DNA of 64,000 bases from Candidatus Wolframiiraptor gerlachensis (GTDB lineage: Archaea > Thermoproteota > Nitrososphaeria_A > Caldarchaeales > Wolframiiraptoraceae), in contig JAJPCT020000022.1 in the NCBI GenBank assembly GCA_021323375.2, forward strand, positions 38,411 to 102,410, in the 5' to 3' direction. Positions within the stretch are counted from its first letter, which is position 1; every line of letters starts with the position of its first letter. This document shows, piece after piece, positions 378 to 53,777 of this stretch. The position numbers were made by a program, and so were the translations under genes. Under the pieces are notes generated by a model that saw nothing but the letters and a program-made list of their open reading frames with translations, ran no database searches and was not told the origin of the DNA.

Positions 378-824
378 TTATTCACCTGGGGGCGGTGGAA
401 GTGATGTTACAGTAATTGTCGTCGTTGATGTAGATGTAACAGTTGTTGTAATGGTTCGCGTGGTTGTCGTCAGGCTTGTAATCGTCTCCGTGGTTGTTAT
501 GGAGTAGGTGGTTGTGGAGGTGATTGTTGTCGGGCTTATGCTCGTCACCGTTGTGGGGATAAAAGTAGCCTCTGTTTTTGTAGATATTTGGGTGAGCGTC
601 GTAGGGCTCGTAATGATACTATAAACAGTTTCCATGCCTGTCACAGTTACTCTGACCGTTTCAGATGAGGTTTCCGTGGATATGACCGTATGAGTAACTG
701 TTGTCGGGCTAAAGATGGTAGTACTCCTAGCCTCGGTCAGGGTTGACATCGATAAAACCCCTATACCTATGATCATTAAAACAGCTATAATCGATAAAGT
801 TAACGCTATGATATTCAGCCTCAC
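378..824 (-). CDS. Thr/Ser-rich secreted or membrane-anchored protein
   Basis: N-terminal hydrophobic helix followed by about 115 aa dominated by T/S, ending LPPPPGE. Confidence 0.7.
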   Translation of the reverse strand: MRLNIIALTLSIIAVLMIIGIGVLSMSTLTEARSTTIFSPTTVTHTVISTETSSETVRVTVTGMETVYSIITSPTTLTQISTKTEATFIPTTVTSISPTTITSTTTYSITTTETITSLTTTTRTITTTVTSTSTTTITVTSLPPPPGE

Positions 825-1046
825 TCTTTCAGATATTTGTACGTCTGATAGGATTTAAGTCTTTCCGATGACGAGCTGTCAACCAGATAATGCCTCTCTT
901 TGGGCCCTATCACTAATGCATAGCCCTTTTATCAAATTCCTGCTGGCCAGCTTTTGCCCGCGCCTTTCTACCAAAGCTTAAGCCCGATTCACTTTTCATG
1001 GTTAAGATTTTAAACTGTTTTATTATCTTTCTAGGCTAGGGGCTGG

Positions 1047-1907
1047 ATGAGATTTAGGTCCATTAGGAGGCCGCTGATATGTAGTCCGGCTGCTAGGCTG
1101 CTTCTTGAAGGTAAGCGCCGCGGCCTTAAAAGTGTTAGGACATCGCTGGATCTTGGGAGGAGCTATGTTGAGGTTGAGCTCCTCGATTATGGCATACGCT
1201 ATGGTGATGTGGAGCTTAGCTGGGATAATATCAACCTCGCTTGCTCCCGGGAGAGGGATATCTATGTTATCGAGGGCGGGGAGCTTATACCGCTCTCAAT
1301 AGCCTCGGAGCATTTTTACAAGCTCGTTCTCGTCAAGTGGGGTAAGCCGCCGACACTCGAGATAGATGGCATACACATGCATAGAATTCTAGATGTTACG
1401 CCCGATGTGGACTCGGAGATGAAGGTGGCTCTCCTAGGGAACATCAGGTGCTGGAGGGTTCTTGATGTTTGCACGGGGCTTGGATACACAGCGATAGCGG
1501 CGCTGAAGAGGGGTGCCTGCTCGATCCTGACAATAGAGAAGGATGAGAATGTGCTGAGGCTCGCCGCCCTCAATCCATGGTCGCGGGAGCTTGAGGATGA
1601 TCGGGTTGAGCTTGTGCTCGGCGACGCATTCGAGGTCTTGGAGGAGTTTAAGAACGAGTTCGACGCCGTGATCCATGATCCCCCGAGGATGCCCCTAGCA
1701 GGGAGCCTCTATAGCTTGGAGTTTTACGTGAAGCTGGCTAGGGCCCTCAAGCCCGGGGGAAAGATCGTGCATTATGTCGGCCAGCCGGGAATCCATAGGG
1801 GTAGGAGGATTTGGAAGGGGGTTCTCGAGAGGCTTAGGCAGGCTGGATTCGATGCAAGCTATGATGAGAGGTCTCGATGCGTCTATGGTAGGAAACTGGG
1901 AAAATAA
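1047..1907 (+). CDS. Class I SAM-dependent methyltransferase (archaeal COG2521-like)
   Basis: PTLEIDGIHMHR, VLDVCTGLGYTAI and IHDPPR motifs. Confidence 0.85.
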   Translation: MRFRSIRRPLICSPAARLLLEGKRRGLKSVRTSLDLGRSYVEVELLDYGIRYGDVELSWDNINLACSRERDIYVIEGGELIPLSIASEHFYKLVLVKWGKPPTLEIDGIHMHRILDVTPDVDSEMKVALLGNIRCWRVLDVCTGLGYTAIAALKRGACSILTIEKDENVLRLAALNPWSRELEDDRVELVLGDAFEVLEEFKNEFDAVIHDPPRMPLAGSLYSLEFYVKLARALKPGGKIVHYVGQPGIHRGRRIWKGVLERLRQAGFDASYDERSRCVYGRKLGK

Positions 1908-1923
1908 GAATAATGATGGGTTT

Positions 1924-2420
1924 TTACTCTGATGGGATCTCGTCTCTCAGCCCATTAACCTAATAGATCGTCATGTCCTATAAATCGCTCCACACGTCGT
2001 CTAGATACTCCGGTAGCCCTGACCTTTCCACGATTCTGACACTACTGCGTACACCTCACTCATAGACTGTTATAGTATAGTGTGGTTCTATCCTGTATGG
2101 TAGCCTGCCATGTTCTCTCATGAGATATGCTAGATCTCTTCATCCGTTGGGATTATTATCCAGTGAGATCTCCTCTAGAGCCTTATAAAACTCCTCATTC
2201 CCGATCTCATGGTAATAGGGTGTATGTCTGAAAACTGAGACTTTAAGCCTCTTATTATCCCTGTCTCGGCAATACCATACCTGCGCCTCCTCGCCCAGCT
2301 CAGCAGCATACTTCTTCTCTACGTGGAAGATCTCATGCCTGTTCGCCCTCCGCTCGCGGGGAATCTCGACTCAGAGCCCCTCAACCTCCCTTAGCGCTCT
2401 CATTATGCCCCTTTCCCATG
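1924..2420 (-). pseudogene. Possible decayed gene of unknown function, truncated at the left end of the adjacent element
   Basis: One frame with coding-like composition (…WERGIMRALREVEGL*VEIPRERR…FRHTPYYHEIGNEEFYKALEEISL…), about 75 uninterrupted codons but 5 internal TGA/TAG stops. Confidence 0.35.
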
Positions 2421-2488
2421 TTGCATTTTCGGGCTGGCCCTCAATGAATAAGTTGAGGGTTCATGTTGAGGGTATGTGTGGGATGTAG

Positions 2489-3373
2489 ATGATTGGGGTT
2501 TACTATGTTGATACTGCAATTCCAAGTGACAGGAAGAAGAGGGGAAGAGTAAGACTCATACGGTCTTCGACGGGGGGCAAGGTATTCAAAGTGAGAAGAT
2601 TAACCGAGCTGGAGGCGCCGACGAGATATACATCAATTCGCTGCTCCCGGAGCTATATGACGAGATCCTAGAATCGTTGAGGAGGGGTGTTAGGGTATAC
2701 CTGCTGAAGGATGTCAGAAAGCTGATGAGGATGGAGAATAACTTGAAGAAGAATGATGAGAATAATGCTATGCTATTTTCAAGAATTCCAAGAGAGGCAT
2801 TCAGGTTGTTGACGATTGAGGAGATAGAGCTTAAGGCGGAGACACATCCGTTGATAAATAAGTATGAGTGGCTTGTGCGGTGGAGGAAGCAGCTGAGGAA
2901 GTTGGTTAAGGACGGCTATGACTATAACTTCAAGGAATCAATAAGGCTCATGGAGATGGATAGGAGGAAAATATCCTCCGAGGAGATTATCAGACAGGTG
3001 GACAGCCTCCCCATTTACGGGGAGATTTGGTGGAAAGCTTGCGAGATCCTTGGGGCTCAGGAAGAGCGCTGAGCTAGCCATACTGGCGATAGGGTTGCCG
3101 CCTCATTTGCCGATGGTGAGTTGAAAACGTTATTGGGGTTGGTTCTAGGCGGAAATAGAGGACGGTACAACCATAGGTTAAGAGATCATATTACGAGATT
3201 CGCAGTAAACCTTTACATAAACGCCGAGAAAGGATGCCAGTATTTCGGATAAGGTTATTGAGGTTGTTAATTGTCTGCCGAAAAAGCGGGCAATATCCAA
3301 ATTAGAGTGATGATTCTAAAAATGCTACGATAGCATACCTTATGACGACAAATCCGCTGGCCAGCGGCAGTAA
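2489..3373 (+). pseudogene. Frameshifted IS110-related (DEDD RuvC + Nop/Tnp-like) protein, about 290 aa when reconstructed
   Basis: Fragments GVYYVDTAIP, DEIYINSLLPELYDEI, RRGVRVYLLKD, KKNDENNAML, LKTLLGL.GGNRGRYNHRLRDHI, AYLMTTNPLA spread over several frames. Confidence 0.8.
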
Positions 3374-3497
3374 AAGCCATAAAAGCCGGTAAGGTTATTA
3401 GCGTTTCCCCACTATGGATGGGTTTATAAACCGTCCATAGATGGTTATGGCAGGATCTCCTGCCGGTCTTTATGGCTACGAGGACTCGCCGGCCAGC
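3356..3497 (+). ncRNA. Putative dual-guide structured RNA, unit 1
   Basis: Nested stems GCTGGCCAGCG/CGCCGGCCAGC, AGCCATAAAAGCCGG/CCGGTCTTTATGGCT and CTATGGA/TCCATAG; 14-nt arms at 3395-3408 and 3445-3458; homologous to 11217-11351 and 53601-53733. Confidence 0.75.
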
Positions 3498-3688
3498 CAC
3501 CTCCCCTTTTCCCCTAAAGCTCACTCACTTTCATGATTATGAACTTCATGTGATACGAATATAGTAAACTGATACTTGGAGCTCGCGGATTCGAACTTTC
3601 ATACTTGTTAAATTTTTTCGGCCCATCCCTCCTAATACACTCCTAAGAGATCCCCTTATACTACCCTTAATCTAAGATTCTGCCGGAT

Positions 3689-5278
3689 ATGCCGAGGGAG
3701 ATCATCGGGCATGGAACTTGGATGGATAAGGTGGCTGCTGAGCTTATTGAGAGGGAGAGGAGGCTTGGCAGGAGCCTAGATATGATAAGGACTGAGAGCG
3801 GGCTCGGGGCTTCAGGGATACCGCATGTGGGTAGTATGGCGGATGCCGTGAGAGCTTATGGTGTAACCCTCGCCCTGAGAGAGCTTGGATACAACTCCGA
3901 GTGCATAGCATTCACCGATGATATGGATGGTCTTAGGAGGGTTCCAGCGGGGATGCCGAGAGAGCTTGAGAAGTATCTCCTCAAGCCCGTCTCATCGATC
4001 CCGGACCCGTACGGCTGCCACGAGTCGTTCGCCGCGCATATGAGCGGGATGCTGAGGGATGGGCTTGAGAAGGCTGGGATAGAGTGCAGATATATGTCGG
4101 GGAGGCAGGCTTATGCCTCCGGGCTCCTAGCCGAGCAGATACATATGATCCTGCTAAATGCTAGGAGGGTTGGGGAGAAGATCGAGGAGCTAACAGGCCA
4201 GACGAAGTTCAAGCAGATCCTTCCATATTTCGCGGTATGCAGGAATTGTGGAAGGATATACACTACGCAGGCCTATGAGTATGATCCCGGAAGGAGGGTT
4301 GTAAGGTATAGGTGTGTTGGTGTGGAGGTTGGGGGGAGGTGGTTTGAGGGGTGCGGCTATGAGGGCGAGGCTGATATCAGGAGGGATGATGGCAAGCTCG
4401 CCTGGAAGACGGAGTTCGCCGCGAGATGGGCCGCCCTAGACATAAGGTTTGAGGCATATGGAAAGGATATCGCGGACTCCGTCAAGGTGAATGACTGGGT
4501 CTCGAGGGAGGTTCTGGGATTCGAGCCCCCAATGCACGTGCGGTATGAGATGTTTTTGGACGCATCGGGTAAAAAGATCTCGAAATCCCTTGGCAACGTC
4601 TTCACGCCCCAGCTCTGGTACAGGTATGGGACGCCTCAGAGTCTTCTCCTTCTGCTCTTCAAGCGGGCTATCGGGACCCGGGTGCTAACACTCCAGACGA
4701 TACCCAAGCTCATGGATGAGCTGGACTACTTGGAAGACGTGTACTTCGACAGGGTTAGGGTGGATAATGAGCTGGAAAGAGCTAGGCTTAAGGGATTATA
4801 CCTTTACTCCTATCTCTTGAGACCACCTGAGAGGCCGTCGCCCCATATACCGTATTCGCTGATCGTGGAGCTGGCCTTGGTCGCGCCGGAGGGGAGGGAG
4901 CTCGAATTTATCATGGCCAGGCTCCGGAAATATGGCTATGAGCTTGATGAGAGGGCCATGGAGAAGATCAGGCTCGCGATAAACTATGCAAGAGATCTGG
5001 GCGCAGTTGAGAGGAGGCCTGTCGAGTTATCCGAGGAGGAGAGGAGGGCGATCATGGAGCTAATTAGGCTTGTTGAAGCGGCGCAGAGCGCTGATGAGGT
5101 TCAGTCAGCGATCTTCCAAGCGGCGAGGAGCGTGGGCCTAGATCCAAAGGAGTTCTTCAAGAAGCTGTACATGATCTTTTTGGGTAGGGAGAGCGGCCCA
5201 AGGCTCGGCCCTTTCCTCTGGGACCTGGGGAAGGATAGGGTGCTGGAGATCCTTCGCTCAAGCCTTCAGCGAAAATGA
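3689..5278 (+). CDS. lysS: Lysine--tRNA ligase, class I
   Basis: GASGIPHVGS (HIGH-like), GKLAWKTEFAARW and KKISKSLGN (KMSKS) motifs. Confidence 0.97.
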   Translation: MPREIIGHGTWMDKVAAELIERERRLGRSLDMIRTESGLGASGIPHVGSMADAVRAYGVTLALRELGYNSECIAFTDDMDGLRRVPAGMPRELEKYLLKPVSSIPDPYGCHESFAAHMSGMLRDGLEKAGIECRYMSGRQAYASGLLAEQIHMILLNARRVGEKIEELTGQTKFKQILPYFAVCRNCGRIYTTQAYEYDPGRRVVRYRCVGVEVGGRWFEGCGYEGEADIRRDDGKLAWKTEFAARWAALDIRFEAYGKDIADSVKVNDWVSREVLGFEPPMHVRYEMFLDASGKKISKSLGNVFTPQLWYRYGTPQSLLLLLFKRAIGTRVLTLQTIPKLMDELDYLEDVYFDRVRVDNELERARLKGLYLYSYLLRPPERPSPHIPYSLIVELALVAPEGRELEFIMARLRKYGYELDERAMEKIRLAINYARDLGAVERRPVELSEEERRAIMELIRLVEAAQSADEVQSAIFQAARSVGLDPKEFFKKLYMIFLGRESGPRLGPFLWDLGKDRVLEILRSSLQRK

Positions 5279-8258: not shown

Positions 8259-10136
8259 TTAGAACTCGAACTCGTATGTTCGAGTTCTTACAGCTCCCTG
8301 CATGATTGGGTAGAGCTTGGCTAGCGCCTCATCCAGCCCAAGCTCCATCAGCTTCTGCGGAGTTGGTATGCCGTTCTCATCCCAACCTCTCAGCTCATAA
8401 TATGTTTTAAGCAACTCGGCGAACTTCTCCCTATCCAAGGTTATTCCCTTGGTCTCTCCCTCCGGCACCGGGTCCTCGAAATCCCTTGCCGGGAGGGTGT
8501 CATCCTTCGCGCATACCCTCTTCCTGAGGTAGGCGATGACCCTTACCAAGTTCCAGACCCTCTCGGAGCACTTGAGAAGATCATCCAGAGTCGTCTCCCT
8601 ACCGGTAACCGCGGAATAAGCCTCCGCATAGATGTTTGGGTCGATCTTCAGCTCAACCCATGGAAGCCTGCATACTCCAAGCATGTCGAATAATGGCCTG
8701 ATGTGCTGGAGGTAGATCACCTTCTCAGCCTTATCGCGGCTATAGCTCGCCCGCCCAACTTCGACATCATATGTTATCGCCCAAGACCGATTATGATGTG
8801 CTCCTATATCGCACGTAGCGTAGCTAAGGGCCATTGCCGTGGCGGCCCTATGATCATATGCACTTATCTCGAGGCCCTTCACATGCATCGCGAACCTCTC
8901 TGAGCCCCGCTTAACATAGCTCGCGACAGCCTTAACGCCCTGTGCTAGGAGGCTCCCTATCCCCCTCCTATAAGCTATCATCTCTATGAGCTGATAGATC
9001 TTCTCGGCTTCCCCCCATGAGATCTCGAAGCCGAGCTCATCCTTGGTTATCAAGCCCCTCTGGAAACACTCTATCAAGAATGCTATAACGGATCCCGTGC
9101 TTATCGTGTCGATGCCATAGTAGTCGCAAAGGTAATTCGCTTTAGCAACCTCCTGAAGCGTCCTTAACCCGAGGTTTGAGCCCAGCATCCCGAGGTTCTC
9201 GTAATCAACGACCACGAAGTCGTCATCAATTCTTAGCGTATGGCCGCATGGTATTATGCAGTTTGCGCAAGCGGAGACATAGACCTGAGACTCGTGGACG
9301 GCTCTCCCGGAGATCGCGTCAGCATACTCGTAGACGGTCTTCTGGAAGTTGTATGTTGGGAGGGCCTCCACGCCATTAGCCCATTCAACAGTCATGTTCG
9401 TCCCATACTTCATCCAGCTATCATATGCTGGGCTCGACCTAACCTCTTCCATAAGCCTCCTATTCACCTCTCTAAGCCTCTCAGGGTCTGCGACATCTAC
9501 GGATCCGCTTCCTCGAGCCACGATCGCCTTGAGGTTCTTGCTGCCCATCACCGCACCCATCCCCGTCCTCCCAGCCTGTGAGTGCCTCCGCTCCCTAAGC
9601 CCCCAATCCACGTTTATCGAGGCATAGACCACCATCTTCTCACCCGCAACCCCTATCGTCGCTATCGAGCAGTCTCCATACCTCTCTCGAAGCACGCGGT
9701 CGGCATCCTTCGAGCTCATCCCCCATAGGCTTGGATCCTCGACCACCTCGACACGCCCATCATCGACTAGGAGGTAGCTCGGTGCATTAGCCCTACCCCT
9801 TATCACCAGCGCATCTATGCCAGCCCTCCTCATCATATAGCCGAGGTATCCGCCGACACTGCTATCTCCATATATGCCAGTCTGGGGGCTTATTGCCGCG
9901 AAGCTCGTCTTGCATCCGCCGAGAAAGCCCGTCGCCGCCAACGGGCCCGTCGCAACCACAAGAACATTTGATGGATGGGTTCCATGAATTATCTCATTAA
10001 GATTCTCGAAGATTATCTGCGCACACCAGCCCCTCCCGCCAATGAAGTCCCTAATCAGCCTCTCATCAGGATCATAGGTACGCACCCTACCCTCCGTCAG
10101 ATCTATCTCAGCTATCCTGCCATAGCCATGCATCAT
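8259..10136 (-). CDS. aor: Aldehyde:ferredoxin oxidoreductase family (W-pterin)
   Basis: GRTGMGAVMGSKNLKAI, CANCIIPC, CDYYGIDTIS and HVKGLE motifs. Confidence 0.95.
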   Translation of the reverse strand: MMHGYGRIAEIDLTEGRVRTYDPDERLIRDFIGGRGWCAQIIFENLNEIIHGTHPSNVLVVATGPLAATGFLGGCKTSFAAISPQTGIYGDSSVGGYLGYMMRRAGIDALVIRGRANAPSYLLVDDGRVEVVEDPSLWGMSSKDADRVLRERYGDCSIATIGVAGEKMVVYASINVDWGLRERRHSQAGRTGMGAVMGSKNLKAIVARGSGSVDVADPERLREVNRRLMEEVRSSPAYDSWMKYGTNMTVEWANGVEALPTYNFQKTVYEYADAISGRAVHESQVYVSACANCIIPCGHTLRIDDDFVVVDYENLGMLGSNLGLRTLQEVAKANYLCDYYGIDTISTGSVIAFLIECFQRGLITKDELGFEISWGEAEKIYQLIEMIAYRRGIGSLLAQGVKAVASYVKRGSERFAMHVKGLEISAYDHRAATAMALSYATCDIGAHHNRSWAITYDVEVGRASYSRDKAEKVIYLQHIRPLFDMLGVCRLPWVELKIDPNIYAEAYSAVTGRETTLDDLLKCSERVWNLVRVIAYLRKRVCAKDDTLPARDFEDPVPEGETKGITLDREKFAELLKTYYELRGWDENGIPTPQKLMELGLDEALAKLYPIMQGAVRTRTYEFEF

Positions 10137-10421
10137 TGATGGTCCGCCAAGGTAAACAATATCCCCCTAATTAATTTATTGCCTCGCATACCATGGGCTT
10201 AACATCGGCATAGATTTCCCCTAAATTGTTAGGGGGGAGGTTTCCGCCTAGCTTTGTCTTCTCTCCGCCATCAAGACCATAGGTTGTATAGGTCTCTGCC
10301 CTCCACCTATCAGCATCCGTGATCATTAATTAATATCCTTTTATAGAGTGTTTTTGCCATTTTCGGGATGGTCCTCAATGAATAAGGGGAGGGCTCGTAT
10401 TGGAGGTATGTGTGGGTGTGG

Positions 10422-11231
10422 ATGGCTAGGGTTTATTATGTTGATGTGGCGATTCCCGCTGACAAGAAGAGGGGGAGGCATAAGACGCATGCGGTCTTTG
10501 ATGGGGGCAGGGTTTTCAGGGTCAAGAAGCTGACGGAACTTGAGGGTGCCAGCGAGATATCTGCTAAAGGATATTGCCAAGCTGAAGAGGCTGAGGATGG
10601 AGAATAATATGAGGAAGAGTGATGAGAATGATGCAATGCTACTTGTACAGATTCTAAAGGAGACATTTAGGTCGTTAATTATCAAGGAACTAGAGCTTAA
10701 AATGAAGATGAGACCATTAGTGAAAGAATATGAGAAAATCATGCGTTAGAGAAGAAGATTGACGACACTAATAAAACACGGCTTCGACTACAACTTCAAA
10801 GAGTCAATAAGACTTATGAATGTAGCTAGAATAAGGATTTCTGGAAAGATTGCTAGTCAGATAGCCATCCTTCATATACTTCATAATATACGAAGAAGTT
10901 TATAAGAAGGCTTGTAAAATTCTCGGTCTCAAGGAATAACGCTGAACGCGCAATCCTAGCAATAGAACTACCGCTTCATCTACCACTAGTAAGACTGAAA
11001 GGGCGATATAATCATAGACTGAGAAGGCATATCGCAAGGCTTGCAACAAGCCTTTACAAAAAAAAATGTTAGTTAGTTAGTTTTAGAAAGAACATAAGAT
11101 TTTTCGAATGAGATTGCAGAAGTTAGTAATCGCCTGCCAAAGAAGCAGACAATAGTCGGATTAGAACTACTCATTTTGAAAGCACTGCGAGTAGCATATC
11201 TTATGACTGTGAAGCCGCTGGCGGCGAGTAG
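10422..11231 (+). pseudogene. Frameshifted and deleted IS110-related RuvC/Nop-like protein
   Basis: MARVYYVDVAIPADKKRGRHKTHAVFDGG, YLLKDIAKLKRLRMENNMRKSDENDAMLL, GFDYNFKESIRLM, GRYNHRLRRHIARLA, LILKALRVAYLMTVKPLA. Confidence 0.8.
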
Positions 11232-11351
11232 TAAAAGCCATAAAGGCCGGTAAGGTCGTTGCCGGCATCCCAGCATGGAAGATCCCATGAATTCATGTAT
11301 GGTTTTAGGTTTGATACCTGCCGGCTTTTTATAGTTATGAAGACCGCCAGC
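11217..11351 (+). ncRNA. Putative dual-guide structured RNA, unit 2
   Basis: GCTGGCGG/CCGCCAGC outer stem, AGCCATAAAGGCCGG stem, GCATGGA/TTCATGT inner stem; 14-nt arms at 11256-11269 and 11303-11316. Confidence 0.75.
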
Positions 11352-11490
11352 CCACCCCGCTTTTAACCTTTTATTAGTAAGGCTTTTCACGACCTACAAC
11401 GTTTAAAGGCCCTCCTCGACAAAGTACTAGTAATTCAATTTTCCCAAAACGCCTAAAGCTGGAAAATGATCAAATTAAAGAATTCTCATG

Positions 11491-53485: not shown

Positions 53486-53600
53486 ACTGCACTGTGGCCC
53501 CCTTGTTACGAGAAAGCCATTCAATATTAGCTTCTCTTTCTCTCCTCTTCTTCTCGTTATCTTGCCTCTATTATCTCTCGAAATAAGAATTGAGAGGATC

Positions 53601-53733
53601 GGCCGGCGAGTAGTAAAAAGTCATAAAGGCCAGTAAGGTTCGAGCGATAGTCCACCGTGGAGGACTTTGCGAATCTATGGATGGTACTAGCCATGTTCCT
53701 GCCGGCCTTTATGGCTACGAGGACGCGTCGGCC
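53601..53733 (+). ncRNA. Putative dual-guide structured RNA, unit 3 (orphan, no adjacent protein gene)
   Basis: GGCCGGCG/CGTCGGCC, AGTCATAAAGGCCAG/CCGGCCTTTATGGCT and CCGTGGA/TCTATGG stems; 13-nt arms at 53639-53651 and 53685-53697. Confidence 0.75.
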
Positions 53734-53777
53734 ACCCTACCCAAATATGTTTGTTCTTTCTAAAGAGTCTAGCTGGC

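Follow-up and report, generated by a model that had tools for sequence, protein, structure and literature searches.

The closest described systems are TIGR-Tas and the IS110/IS1111 insertion sequences. The TIGR-Tas protein TasR and its stem-loop tigRNAs have been reported recently (Faure et al. 2025, PMC12045711; Xu et al. 2026, preprint 10.64898/2026.09.09.750476). According to these reports, two 9-nt spacers direct TasR to opposite strands of an 18-bp target, 8-nt overhangs are left, and the authors state that the natural spacer targets, spacer acquisition and the biological role are open. The preprint (10.64898/2026.09.09.750476) names CPR bacteria as the only known non-viral hosts with arrays.

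Here we describe a unit of 1.2-1.6 kb, hosted by one order of Thermoproteota-type hot-spring archaea, which is best read as a single-protein, single-guide, RNA-targeted site-specific mobile element between IS110 and TIGR-Tas. No prior description of the element family was found in our literature search, outside which lay most subscription journals, table S1, the 20,096 tas loci and TIGRSafari.

Protein family and copies in the window

A sequence-only reading of the window (the whole 64,000-nucleotide stretch analysed here) had quoted motifs of two decayed TasR/IS110-like copies. We confirmed both copies as ORF fragments, and their fragmented frames bear out the further claim that both are pseudogenes (Table 1). 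The pseudogene of copy 1 shares 68-72% DNA identity with other copies, and its fragments carry VYYVD, RRGVRVYLL, K.DENNAMLF and LKTLLGL..GGNRGRYNHRLR. At the copy 1 site, ~1896 is joined directly to ~3676, with 18-54 nt between, in six sister genomes (G267, G291, G363, G333, G273 and G297). The insertion in the window (1897-3675) is larger than the segment 2421-3500 first assigned to it. A module similar to the divergent one at its left end was found upstream of other copies. The conserved upstream motif, common to many copies, is a possible promoter or 5' leader, and the tail after P1 is, judging from its composition, the likely transcript end, where termination would occur. No Pfam family was detected at E<0.05 for the accessory ORFs (the 55-99-aa upstream ORF, the divergent left module and the C1 left-end frame).

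Table 1. Features of the three modules in the window, with positions counted from its first nucleotide.
Feature	Position	Strand	Remarks
Element copy 1	2424-3514		Frameshifted member of multicopy element
Copy 1 neighbour, methyltransferase-like gene	1047..1907
Copy 1 neighbour, lysS	3689..5278
Copy 1 inserted DNA, with decayed left and right parts	1897..3675	+	DNA missing from sister genomes
Target left-part remnant TATGGTAGGAAAC adjoining insertion	1884..1896	+	Empty sites have TATGGCAGGAAACGCTAATAG
Divergent left-end module, decayed, 76-aa stop-to-stop frame	2140..2370	-
Conserved upstream motif CATTTTCGGG...AATGAATAAG...	2424..2482	+	Repeat with 10358-10416; 5'-region alignment (n=16)
TasR/IS110-like pseudogene, frameshifts and stops	2489..3371	+	End overlaps P1 5' strand and J1
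Copy 1 ORF fragments	2489..2671 (60 aa), 2677..3072 (131 aa), 3121..3252 (43 aa)
Copy 1 structured guide-like RNA	3357..3496	+	Model R1 match, 148.6 bits
Copy 1 RNA parts	P1 3357-3368/3485-3496; J1 3369-3375/3477-3484; P2 3376-3394/3459-3476; P3 hairpin 3409-3444
Copy 1 5' arm TTATTAGCGTTTCC	3395..3408	+	Reverse complement is the empty target's right half
Copy 1 3' arm TTATGGCAGGATCT	3445..3458	+	Same sense as the empty target's left half
C-rich tail with T run after P1	3497..3530	+	3'-region alignment (n=20): C-rich, then oligo-T
Element copy 2	10358-11355		Also decayed
Element copy 2, 1315 bp insertion, pseudogene	10136..11450	+	G207, G363 and G291 join 10135 to 11451
Copy 2 ORF fragments	10410..10607, 10540..10749, 10759..10905
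Copy 2 RNA	P1 11218-11355; arms 11256-11269 and 11303-11316
Solo RNA module without ORF	53586..53753	+	140 bits

Intact homologues, proposed earlier as a check, occur elsewhere in the genome: a 294-aa ORF, P0001 (G000:C1, L004 1508..2392), and at least five further open copies. In a 35-member family alignment, D8, K90 and D95 are invariant, D50, Y128 and Y182 are nearly so, and no conserved serine or SG is found, near-invariant positions included. The GL-to-N..LR segment (GL..P...N..LR) is short and shows no conserved Ser or SG in this alignment, in line with what had been seen in the window copies, and it is shortened or deleted in several of the 35 members.

When PDB sequences were searched with the family profile A1 (hmmsearch), 9mty_A matched at E 5.2e-7 over residues 79-253 (175 profile positions), which takes in KsDenDA, the coiled coil and the C-terminal domain. 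PDB 9MTY is the TaTasR RNP of TIGR-Tas. It was the sole nuclease-family match; the other PDB match was a Mediator coiled coil (E 0.018), and no other recombinase or nuclease chain appeared at E<=10. By sequence profile, TaTasR is the closest solved relative. IS110 models remained below threshold: PF01548 (DEDD_Tnp_IS110) reached 12 bits against a cut-off of 29 and was weak in 11/35 members (best E 0.0095), NF033542 (transpos_IS110) reached 14.7 bits against a cut-off of 140 (E 0.013), and PF02371 (Tnp domain) was absent from the best 25 of the 33 families listed at E<=1 for the 35 members. Together with the lack of a conserved serine, these scores agree with the earlier placement of a multicopy archaeal family between IS110 and TIGR-Tas.

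The homodimer prediction scored 0.42 against 0.01 for the best control, a result that may echo solved TasR, Nop5 or IS110 dimers; the score of 0.42 was reached by 20/30 proteins solved as pairs and by 1/23 solved as single chains. The predicted dimer has a partner pLDDT of at least 82, contact agreement between runs of at least 100%, and a symmetric interface at residues 127-160. No P0001 relatives were found in viral contigs by a search sensitive to close relatives only.

The hairpin RNA

The 3' end of the gene runs into an RNA of ~140 nt with a predicted P1-J1-P2 stem, a 14x14 internal loop and then P3. Model R1 matched 28 distinct RNA loci in the 1.28-Mb genome G000. Compensatory changes occur in 17 of the 27 predicted pairs of a 34-sequence alignment, and the RNA lies well beyond chance. 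None of three RNA modules compared with Rfam matched a family. The ORF stop codon lies within the J1 5' strand and the last codons encode the P1 5' strand, which substantiates the claim that the end of the gene overlaps a structured RNA with two variable arms.

The stems are conserved and J1 is invariant across the 34 RNAs; the arms, which measure 13-14 nt in this family (f1), are hypervariable. Each element has a single RNA and each RNA a single hypervariable loop, giving one stem-embedded two-arm guide per locus, as had been surmised, and the 28 G000 units are dispersed, with or without an ORF. Arm flanks are conserved and pseudo-symmetric, being ..GG-U[arm]..CC on both arms in f1, and CAAU[N10]ACGCC and GAU[N9]AAUGC in a sister family, f2. 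The box C/box D-type motifs published for TIGR spacers are UG/CCA or CUU/UG, of which these flanks are at most candidate counterparts. Where related copies occupy different loci, their arms seem to have drifted apart by point changes.

That the unit is an ordinary IS110/IS1111 insertion sequence, using a serine recombinase guided by a two-loop bridge/seek RNA, is disfavoured and very improbable. The RNA of the IS1111 group lies at the 3' end, as it does here, and DEDD_Tnp_IS110 and transpos_IS110 both give weak matches, but these scores are far under the curated cut-offs and TasR is the only nuclease-family match in the PDB. Neither the normal IS110 SG loop nor a donor loop, which the sequence-only reading had named as marks of such an element, was found among 35 proteins and 34 RNAs; the RNA has a single variable loop, and the duplications described below measure 6-8 bp.

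Arms, insertion sites and duplications

The two loop arms of each copy spell its own insertion site, on opposite strands: one arm is identical to the flank on one side, and the other arm, once reverse-complemented, is identical to the far flank. In the empty sites of sister genomes both halves are contiguous over 18-20 bp. A target made of the left arm and the reverse complement of the right arm, as predicted from the window alone, was seen at 5/5 alignable G000 loci, among them the three RNA modules in the window. At the empty site of copy 1, the 3' arm matches TATGGCAGGA at 10/10 positions (G291, G363) and the reverse complement of the 5' arm matches GGAAACGCTAATA at 13/14. At that of copy 2 (...GCCGCGCATCAAGCCTAAAG), the 5' arm matches at 9/10 with one gap and is followed by the reverse complement of the 3' arm (11/13). 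The solo module sits in a 242-nt segment, and the same place in G267 is a 343-aa gene that contains CTAGCCATG (3' arm, 9 nt) followed directly by CTCTCGCTCGA (reverse complement of the 5' arm, 10/12). The C1 empty site, CTTAGC(C/T)GAGCTTCTTTCTAA, consists of 10 nt of 3' arm and 12 nt of reverse-complemented 5' arm, and the C4 empty site, GGGAAATAGGTTTAAGCCT, of 12 + 10 nt; at both, the arm matches share 1-3 nt in the middle. At locus C16:117102 every sister genome has the two flanks on separate contigs, and an empty site could not be reconstructed. That the arms address the element's own insertion site had escaped the earlier reading.

Exact matches of at least 10 nt within 300 nt downstream of the RNA were found for the reverse complement of the 5' arm at 5/30 loci, against 3/960 non-own pairs, and for that of the 3' arm at 4/33 loci, against 0/1056 non-own pairs. 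Same-sense controls downstream gave 0/30 (5' arm) and 0/33 (3' arm), and the 3' arm in the same sense upstream gave 4/33 own against 11/1056 non-own. An exact own-flank match of at least 10 nt was present at only 12/33 RNA loci; at the remaining 21 of 33 the match is undetected, decayed or outside the scanned flanks. The orientation of RNA and target varies: some sites read [3' arm ... rc 5' arm], others [5' arm ... rc 3' arm]. The RNA module of the G267 orthologue of window copy 2 is inverted relative to its ORF. At L087 the arm match lies ~40 nt beyond an end-like motif. The permutation and orientation controls reject the notion that the hairpin is merely a terminator or attenuator whose arms match the flanks by chance. 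Its overlap with the stop codon and the T run that follows would suit that notion, but contiguous composite targets stand at 5/5 sister-genome loci and solo modules are conserved without a gene, which leaves it scarcely credible.

No intact composite target (3' arm and reverse complement of 5' arm, gap -4 to 3; 30 RNAs) was found above control in the elements' own genome. The search topped at 21, 19 and 19, the 21 being an RNA's own locus, and 176 mismatched-pair controls reached 22. A looser composite search in the same genome also stayed at noise level, and single-arm matches of 11-13 nt elsewhere in the genome were at chance level. These results bear on a flow of information from target to RNA, in which the arms would be written from the flanks at or after insertion and the RNA would regulate neighbouring genes, confer immunity or mark the site, with no part in choosing it. 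The arms of many diverged copies fit their own unique sites, which is hard to reach by random mutation, RNA modules outlast dead or deleted ORFs, and catalytically dead TasR and TasA are reported to be RNA-guided repressors. On the other side, the arms lie between conserved stems at 40-1400 nt from the junctions. We know of no mechanism for copying flanks into arms. Moreover, the contiguous target is gone after insertion, as the 30 RNAs without an intact target above control illustrate, the acidic RuvC residues are kept, and arms of related copies appear to differ by point changes. We regard this flow as improbable.

The best-defined copies are flanked by duplications of 6-8 bp centred on the half-site boundary, GAGCTT at C1 and TAGGTTT at C4, the length varying between 6, 7 and 8 bp. 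Window copy 2 shows no visible duplication, and at window copy 1 the junction on the right has degraded. Recognition of the unit as a discrete insertion with a 6-8 bp duplication is likewise new relative to the sequence-only reading. The C4 element (1184 bp) contains only the family ORF, for a protein of 318 aa, and the RNA; no second transposase gene is present inside the delimited elements of 1184 bp and 1597 bp, and neither consensus ends nor terminal inverted repeats were found in these two. When J1 strands and arms were compared with the ends of the two delimited elements for donor recognition, the sole match was one of 8 nt at the C4 left end.

The elements are polymorphic for presence and absence, and hot-spring metagenomes carry filled as well as precisely empty alleles. 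In 4/4 metagenome runs a contig skips L004 975-2577, with 6 letters that fit both sides; in X1 the two flank pieces of the skipping contig differ at 0 and 1 positions, and X2 and X3 also have contigs crossing the filled left junction. Among the data sets listed as containing the intact element, none was of RNA.

The elements interrupt genes, some of them tRNA genes. The RNAs of family f2 have 10+9-nt arms. The f2 element L032 splits tRNA-Met and has the 8-bp duplication GCGGGGCT; when its empty site is reconstructed, the sequence folds into a canonical tRNA of 75 nt. L040 splits tRNA-Leu. Copies of f2 in tRNA genes carry a replacement 5' tRNA part, and the tRNA gene persists at one junction: the Rfam tRNA model gives 46.1 bits across L032 2460-2564, and the restored tRNA has a hairpin insert of 31-40 nt at a non-canonical position. 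In two further genomes (f2 loci L129-L138, n=10), the RNA could be parsed by pattern in 5, with a match on both flanks in 3/5 and on one flank in 2/5. No flank match was detected for L029 and L030, and that of L028 is approximate only, by eye.

An IS110-style conservative recombination could also produce such junctions. The element would be excised as a circle, and the RNP would recombine the circle junction with the target through a crossover region of 6-8 bp common to both, without DNA synthesis; the apparent duplication would then be the core. The nucleophile would be one other than the IS110 serine, or the RuvC site would carry out direct transesterification. The distant IS110 similarity (PF01548, NF033542), the precision of the empty allele, the core-like overlap of the arm matches by 1-3 nt at the centre, the replacement tRNA part, which recalls attP-type integrative elements, and the nearly invariant Y128 and Y182 all speak for it. 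Yet the duplicated sequence differs by copy (GAGCTT, TAGGTTT, GCGGGGCT), the RNA showed neither a matching core nor another variable loop for a donor, and the family has no conserved serine and no PF02371 match in the best 25 of 33 families listed; the contig joints listed in the metagenomes include no circle junction, which is weak evidence. Overall, we consider conservative recombination unlikely.

Proposed mechanism and relation to known systems

We propose a compact site-specific mobile element that is targeted by RNA through a dual-arm guide and spreads by a homing-type mechanism, an explanation we hold to be reasonably probable. Its sole conserved gene would encode a ~290-aa protein with a RuvC-like domain (D8/D50/D92/D95), a coiled coil and a Nop-like domain, without the IS110 catalytic serine, and by sequence a relative of TasR and, more distantly, of IS110 recombinases. 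The element would be transcribed, and the ~140-nt RNA (P1-J1-P2-internal loop-P3) that overlaps the 3' end of the gene would be bound by a protein dimer at the pseudo-symmetric flanks of the internal loop. Within an 18-20 bp chromosomal site, the 3' arm would then pair with one strand of one half, while the 5' arm would pair with the opposite strand of the half next to it, and two RuvC sites would cut 6-8 bp apart around the half-site boundary. The element would be joined at the cut, leaving the 6-8 bp duplication. RuvC-type cleavage with 3' overhangs is insufficient alone to account for the joining. Because insertion splits the site, the resident copy would not be a target; the RNP would act only on empty alleles arriving by DNA exchange, and each lineage would therefore be a homing-type element dedicated to one site.

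A stronger version is that the TasR-like RuvC-Nop protein (~290 aa) itself inserts the 1.2-1.6 kb element at the RNA-defined 18-20 bp site, leaving the 6-8 bp duplication, and that, inside a single archaeal order, the system has acquired new addresses dozens of times, in protein genes, intergenic sites and tRNA genes. We advance this tentatively, as a possibility on the doubtful side; were it so, the protein would amount to a very small, programmable insertion system of thermophilic origin.

This TasR-related family shows natural targets directly, since each guide addresses its own insertion site, and the genomes supply alleles with and without the insertion, the lengths of the duplications and dozens of guides that were re-addressed in nature. 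DNA cutting or insertion under RNA guidance by a RuvC-Nop protein without the IS110 serine, the way in which dual-arm guides become re-addressed, and the kinship of IS110, TIGR-Tas and box C/D RNPs are thereby made testable. If insertion is indeed RNA-programmed, mobility and homing would be a biological role for TIGR-Tas-type machinery, and the tRNA-targeting lineages, with their hairpin insert and spare 5' tRNA part, could seed non-canonical tRNA introns and split tRNA genes in Thermoproteota.

As with TnpB/IscB and omega RNA of IS200/IS605 elements, the guide of a putative element-encoded RuvC nuclease addresses the element's own vacant site, which would bias inheritance. However, the protein and the RNA scaffold are unrelated, the arms are internal whereas TnpB takes its guide from sequence flanking the element, and a separate TnpA-type transposase is absent, the 1184-bp C4 element holding one ORF. 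Family f2 resembles integrative elements of tRNA genes in its location and its replacement part, but here there is no integrase, and RNA arms specify the site.

The likeness to TIGR-Tas is closer. The compact RuvC, coiled-coil and C-terminal RNA-binding layout with its acidic residues appears conserved in the sequence, and a symmetric dimer, here only predicted, recalls TasR. Both guides have two short arms in a stem-flanked loop, directed at opposite strands of one contiguous site of 18-20 bp here, a TIGR-Tas guide, too, can extend over the 3' end of its gene, and the reported 8-nt stagger equals the 8-bp duplication of f2. In contrast to the tandem arrays of TIGR-Tas, there is a single guide unit per locus; the family is chromosomal and multicopy in free-living archaea; the acidic residues are retained, whereas the solved stem-loop TasR proteins are catalytically dead; f1 arms reach 13-14 nt; and the unit is itself a discrete insertion flanked by a duplication. 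The site at which it is inserted is its natural target, while the targets of TIGR spacers are stated by their authors to be undetermined.

Like IS110/IS1111 elements (e.g. IS621), to which there is distant sequence similarity, the unit is a mobile element with a single putative RuvC-like and Nop-related protein and a cis-encoded structured RNA whose internal-loop strands would each pair with one side of the target, on opposite DNA strands. It differs in having no catalytic serine and no PF02371 match among the best 25 of 33 families listed, and one programmable loop, no donor loop having been found in the RNAs. Its duplications are 6-8 bp of variable sequence, where IS110/IS1111 elements have a fixed 2-nt core, and each copy has its own target in place of one repeated target.

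Finally, archaeal box C/D sRNPs (Nop5-fibrillarin-L7Ae) also combine a two-guide RNA with a coiled-coil dimer of a Nop-domain protein that has an N-terminal RuvC-like fold. There, however, the N-terminal domain is inactive and the targets are sites of RNA methylation; no C/D boxes were recognised in the RNAs of the present family, which also had no Rfam match. If the proposed reading is true, these elements would be a living intermediate that links TIGR-Tas, IS110 and box C/D RNPs.

Element copies, protein family and hairpin RNA

The window carries three traces of a small archaeal mobile element that consists of one TasR/IS110-like protein gene and an overlapping hairpin RNA with two arms. As the sequence-only reading had proposed, the protein motifs quoted from the raw sequence are present in the split frame pieces of copy 1, and both protein copies in the window are pseudogenes with broken reading frames.

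Element copies in the window (window positions)
Feature	Position	Content
Copy 1	2424-3514	Conserved upstream motif, broken reading frame, long hairpin
Copy 1 frame pieces	2489..2671, 2677..3072, 3121..3252	
Copy 2	10358-11355	Likewise broken
Solo hairpin module (third in window)	53586-53753	No ORF

The 1080-nt region of copy 1 gave 28 DNA matches in its own genome, G000 (1.28 Mb, 27 contigs). The intact homologues sought were found: contig C1 carries an uninterrupted 294-aa ORF (P0001), a profile search of the genome revealed five further open copies, and the hairpin RNA overlaps the 3' end of the ORF. As a single query, P0001 found no match in the PDB, and it scored below the cut-offs of PF01548 (12 bits, cut-off 29) and NF033542 (14.7 bits, cut-off 140). 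The family is small and unannotated, with 157 matches among 5.8 billion clustered proteins, every name given being 'hypothetical', and 156 representatives at E of 0.001 or less among 1.84 billion proteins, many of them fragments. Among 400 other genomes of the phylum, members occur in 28 of the 56 genomes of three families belonging to one order and in none of the remaining 344; carrier genomes usually hold several copies.

An alignment of 35 diverse members revealed invariant D8, K90 and D95, nearly invariant H24, D50, Y128 and Y182, and D92 in most members, with no conserved Ser in the short GL..P...N..LR segment. The profile of this alignment matched PDB chain 9mty_A (E 5.2e-7) over a stretch that takes in the KsDenDA motif, the coiled coil and the C-terminal domain. 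This was the sole nuclease-family chain matched, the one other match being a Mediator subunit (E 0.018). 9MTY is described as the TasR-tigRNA-DNA complex of TIGR-Tas, with a Thermoproteota metagenome record as its source. Modelled as a homodimer, the protein scored 0.42 (vs 0.01 for controls, pLDDT 82 or more), with a symmetric predicted interface at residues 127-160. In a benchmark of solved proteins, 20 of 30 known pairs and 1 of 23 single chains attain the mark applied, and the pass could stem from resemblance to solved relatives. Directly upstream of the main gene, and overlapping its start in many copies, lies a small ORF of 55-99 aa (L003 1081-1380; L004 1348-1515) for which Pfam returned no family at a meaningful E-value; it is absent from both window copies and from the 1184-bp element on contig C4.

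The last codons and stop of the main ORF fall within the 5' strand of the hairpin, which is laid out as P1 (10-11 bp), J1, P2 (about 19 bp), an internal loop of ~14x14 nt and P3 (about 10 bp), followed 3' by a C-rich tail and a T run. The J1 loop is invariant (AGUAAA / ACGAGG), and both strands of the internal loop, the arms, are hypervariable. A covariance model of 14 copies revealed 28 distinct RNA loci in G000, about half of them without a neighbouring ORF match. In an alignment of 34 sense-strand RNA sequences taken from three genomes, two-sided changes preserve pairing at 17 of the 27 predicted pairs (for example UA:17/CG:15 and AU:15/GC:11). Three RNA modules compared with Rfam matched no family there. 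In the more distant families f2 and f3, the corresponding position is occupied by a large, analogous hairpin, and one subgroup of distant members has arms of 10+9 nt between constant flanks. Arms of related copies at different loci appear diverged by point changes (e.g. TGAGGCTTAAACTC vs TGAGGCTCGGATTT), and the modules G000:C16:117102-117253 (L082) and G000:C23:2346-2497 (L085) have an identical 14-nt 5' arm and different 3' arms. In the G267 orthologue (C54, L122 1061-1229) of window 11203-11370, within copy 2, the RNA sense lies on the strand opposite the ORF (146 vs 76 bits), suggesting that the long inverted repeats permit inversion of the guide module.

Correspondence between arms and insertion sites

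Sister genomes within the genus (among them G207, G363, G291 and G267) have empty sites that spell out the arms at 5/5 alignable loci, with contiguous half-sites, in agreement with the target predicted earlier, the left arm followed by the reverse complement (rc) of the right arm. The intact C1 copy (L004 981-2577, 1597 bp) is missing from G207, G363 and G291; its empty site, CTTAGC(C/T)GAGCTTCTTTCTAA, consists of the 3' arm (10 nt) then rc(5' arm) (12 nt), and the element is bordered on both sides by GAGCTT. The C4 copy (1184 bp) is missing from G267 and G363, its empty site being GGGAAATAGGTTTAAGCCT (12 + 10 nt) and its duplication TAGGTTT. At this target, G207 (L107, G207:C7) still has 6 nt from the right end of the element along with a portion of the duplication (...GAAATAG AAGGCA TAGGTTTAAGCC...), a footprint that points to imprecise element loss in that lineage.

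For window copy 1, ~1896 is joined to ~3676 in sister genomes, and the empty site TATGGCAGGAAACGCTAATAG matches the 3' arm at 10/10 and rc(5' arm) at 13/14 positions. The target forms the last part of the upstream gene, and in G000 this gene encodes a different C-terminus (GRKLGK* vs ...GRKR*); the right junction is degraded. Copy 2 (10136-11450) is missing from G207, G363 and G291, and its empty site reads, in the opposite orientation, as the 5' arm (9/10 with a gap) then rc(3' arm) (11/13), with no clear duplication visible at this copy. Its G267 orthologue, compared by eye, has a better arm fit (12/12 and 9/11). The solo RNA stands in place of a 343-aa gene of G267 in which the 3' arm (9 nt) runs straight into rc(5' arm) (10/12). 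A sixth locus, C16:117102, was left out of the count; no sister genome has both of its flanks on one contig, suggesting either rearrangement at copies of the element or a join made in assembly.

Two further observations concern the hosts of these insertions. The left end of the C1 element (L004 981-1183, - strand) runs in frame into the interrupted host ORF (473..1183, - strand; 236 aa, PIN/zinc-ribbon-like), which thereby acquires a different N-terminus. The intergenic site occupied by window copy 1 holds another insertion in G207 (L070, G207:C92, between the orthologues of window 1896 and 3676), ~1.6 kb long and with unrelated ORFs, and the site may be an insertion hot spot.

We also compared the C1 locus with metagenome contigs from four hot-spring runs, each of a different study. 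In 4/4 runs there was a contig that skips L004 975-2577, with 6 letters fitting either side (in run X1, its two flank pieces had 0 and 1 differing letters), and contigs in X2 and X3 crossed the filled left junction. Near-identical backgrounds thus occur both with the filled and with the precisely empty allele.

The arms of each RNA were then scanned against its own flanks and those of all other copies for exact matches of 10 nt or more. Within the 300 nt downstream, rc(5' arm) was found at 5/30 loci (non-own pairs, 3/960) and rc(3' arm) at 4/33 (0/1056), with same-sense controls at 0/30 and 0/33, respectively. Upstream of the RNA, the same-sense 3' arm was found at 4/33 loci (non-own, 11/1056), and 12/33 loci had at least one own-flank match. 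No intact composite target, with both half-sites joined, was found above control level in G000. At a module of different geometry (G000:C7:3323-3482), the 5' arm complements positions 4-13 of a downstream tRNA-Asp gene that is intact (C7:3150-3226), ~40 nt past an end-like motif.

Family f2 is an independent replication of the arm-to-site correspondence. L032 (G351) and L044 (G237) have arms and site in common and split a tRNA-Met gene; rejoining the flanks yields a canonical 75-nt tRNA-Met, and the 8-bp duplication (GCGGGGCT) is centred on the boundary between the 5'-arm and rc(3'-arm) matches. L040 (G201) splits tRNA-Leu(CAG) with a 7-8 bp duplication. Among five RNAs parsed from 10 loci in G026 and G010, three had both-flank matches (9-10 nt each) and two a one-flank match. 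Control orientations gave one 9-nt match in the first f2 scan and one 8-nt match in the G026/G010 scan. At their right end, elements inserted in tRNA genes (L032 2380-2600, G351; L040 2550-2790, G201; L028 downstream of the RNA, G249) carry a replacement for the 5' part of the interrupted tRNA, followed by a 31-40 nt AT-rich hairpin and the duplicated target; with a score of 46.1 bits, the Rfam tRNA model covers L032 2460-2564. In appearance the hairpin resembles a non-canonical tRNA intron made by the element, and such elements could possibly be linked to intron gain or split tRNA genes.

Proposed mechanism and relation to known systems

In published descriptions, TasR uses two 9-nt spacers, each pairing with a different strand of an 18-bp site; both strands are cut to leave 8-nt overhangs, and a coiled-coil dimer holds one guide. 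The element shares this geometry: its two arms address opposite strands, its half-sites adjoin, the acidic residues of its protein are conserved, and this protein is predicted to form a symmetric dimer; its boundary-centred duplications of 8 bp (f2) and 6-7 bp (f1, the window's family) compare with the 8-nt overhangs. Because of this fit, we commit to RNA-guided recognition and staggered cutting. A dimeric RNP would recognise the empty site through its RNA guide and cut it with a stagger, and the element would be joined at the cut. The joining step could be strand transfer of a transposase kind, repair by the host, or a conservative exchange as in IS110 that involves a circular form; element orientation is not fixed relative to the target (window copy 2 is opposite to C1). 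A resident copy would be immune because it splits its own site, and with the RNP acting on empty alleles only, each lineage would be a homing element for one site, paralleling the homing described for TnpB-type systems.

On the criteria applied, the family does not belong to IS110: the models stay sub-threshold, the conserved Ser of an SG loop is absent, the RNA has a single variable loop, where an ordinary IS110 would have a second, and duplications are present. The idea of a chromosomal, multicopy, single-guide family intermediate between IS110 and TIGR-Tas held up, TasR being the closest PDB match, with one two-arm RNA per element and no arrays. A literature search, which covered the TIGR papers (Faure et al. 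2025, PMC12045711; Xu et al. 2026 preprint, 10.64898/2026.09.09.750476) apart from their supplementary lists, found no description of such an element. According to these papers, it is not known what TIGR spacers target, how they are acquired or what biological role the system has, whereas the arms of the element correspond to its own insertion site. The family is related to TasR by profile and uses its guide logic. Unlike TIGR-Tas, however, it sits in multiple copies in the chromosomes of free-living archaea, combines a putative, apparently active RuvC domain with a stem-loop guide, and constitutes the mobile unit itself.
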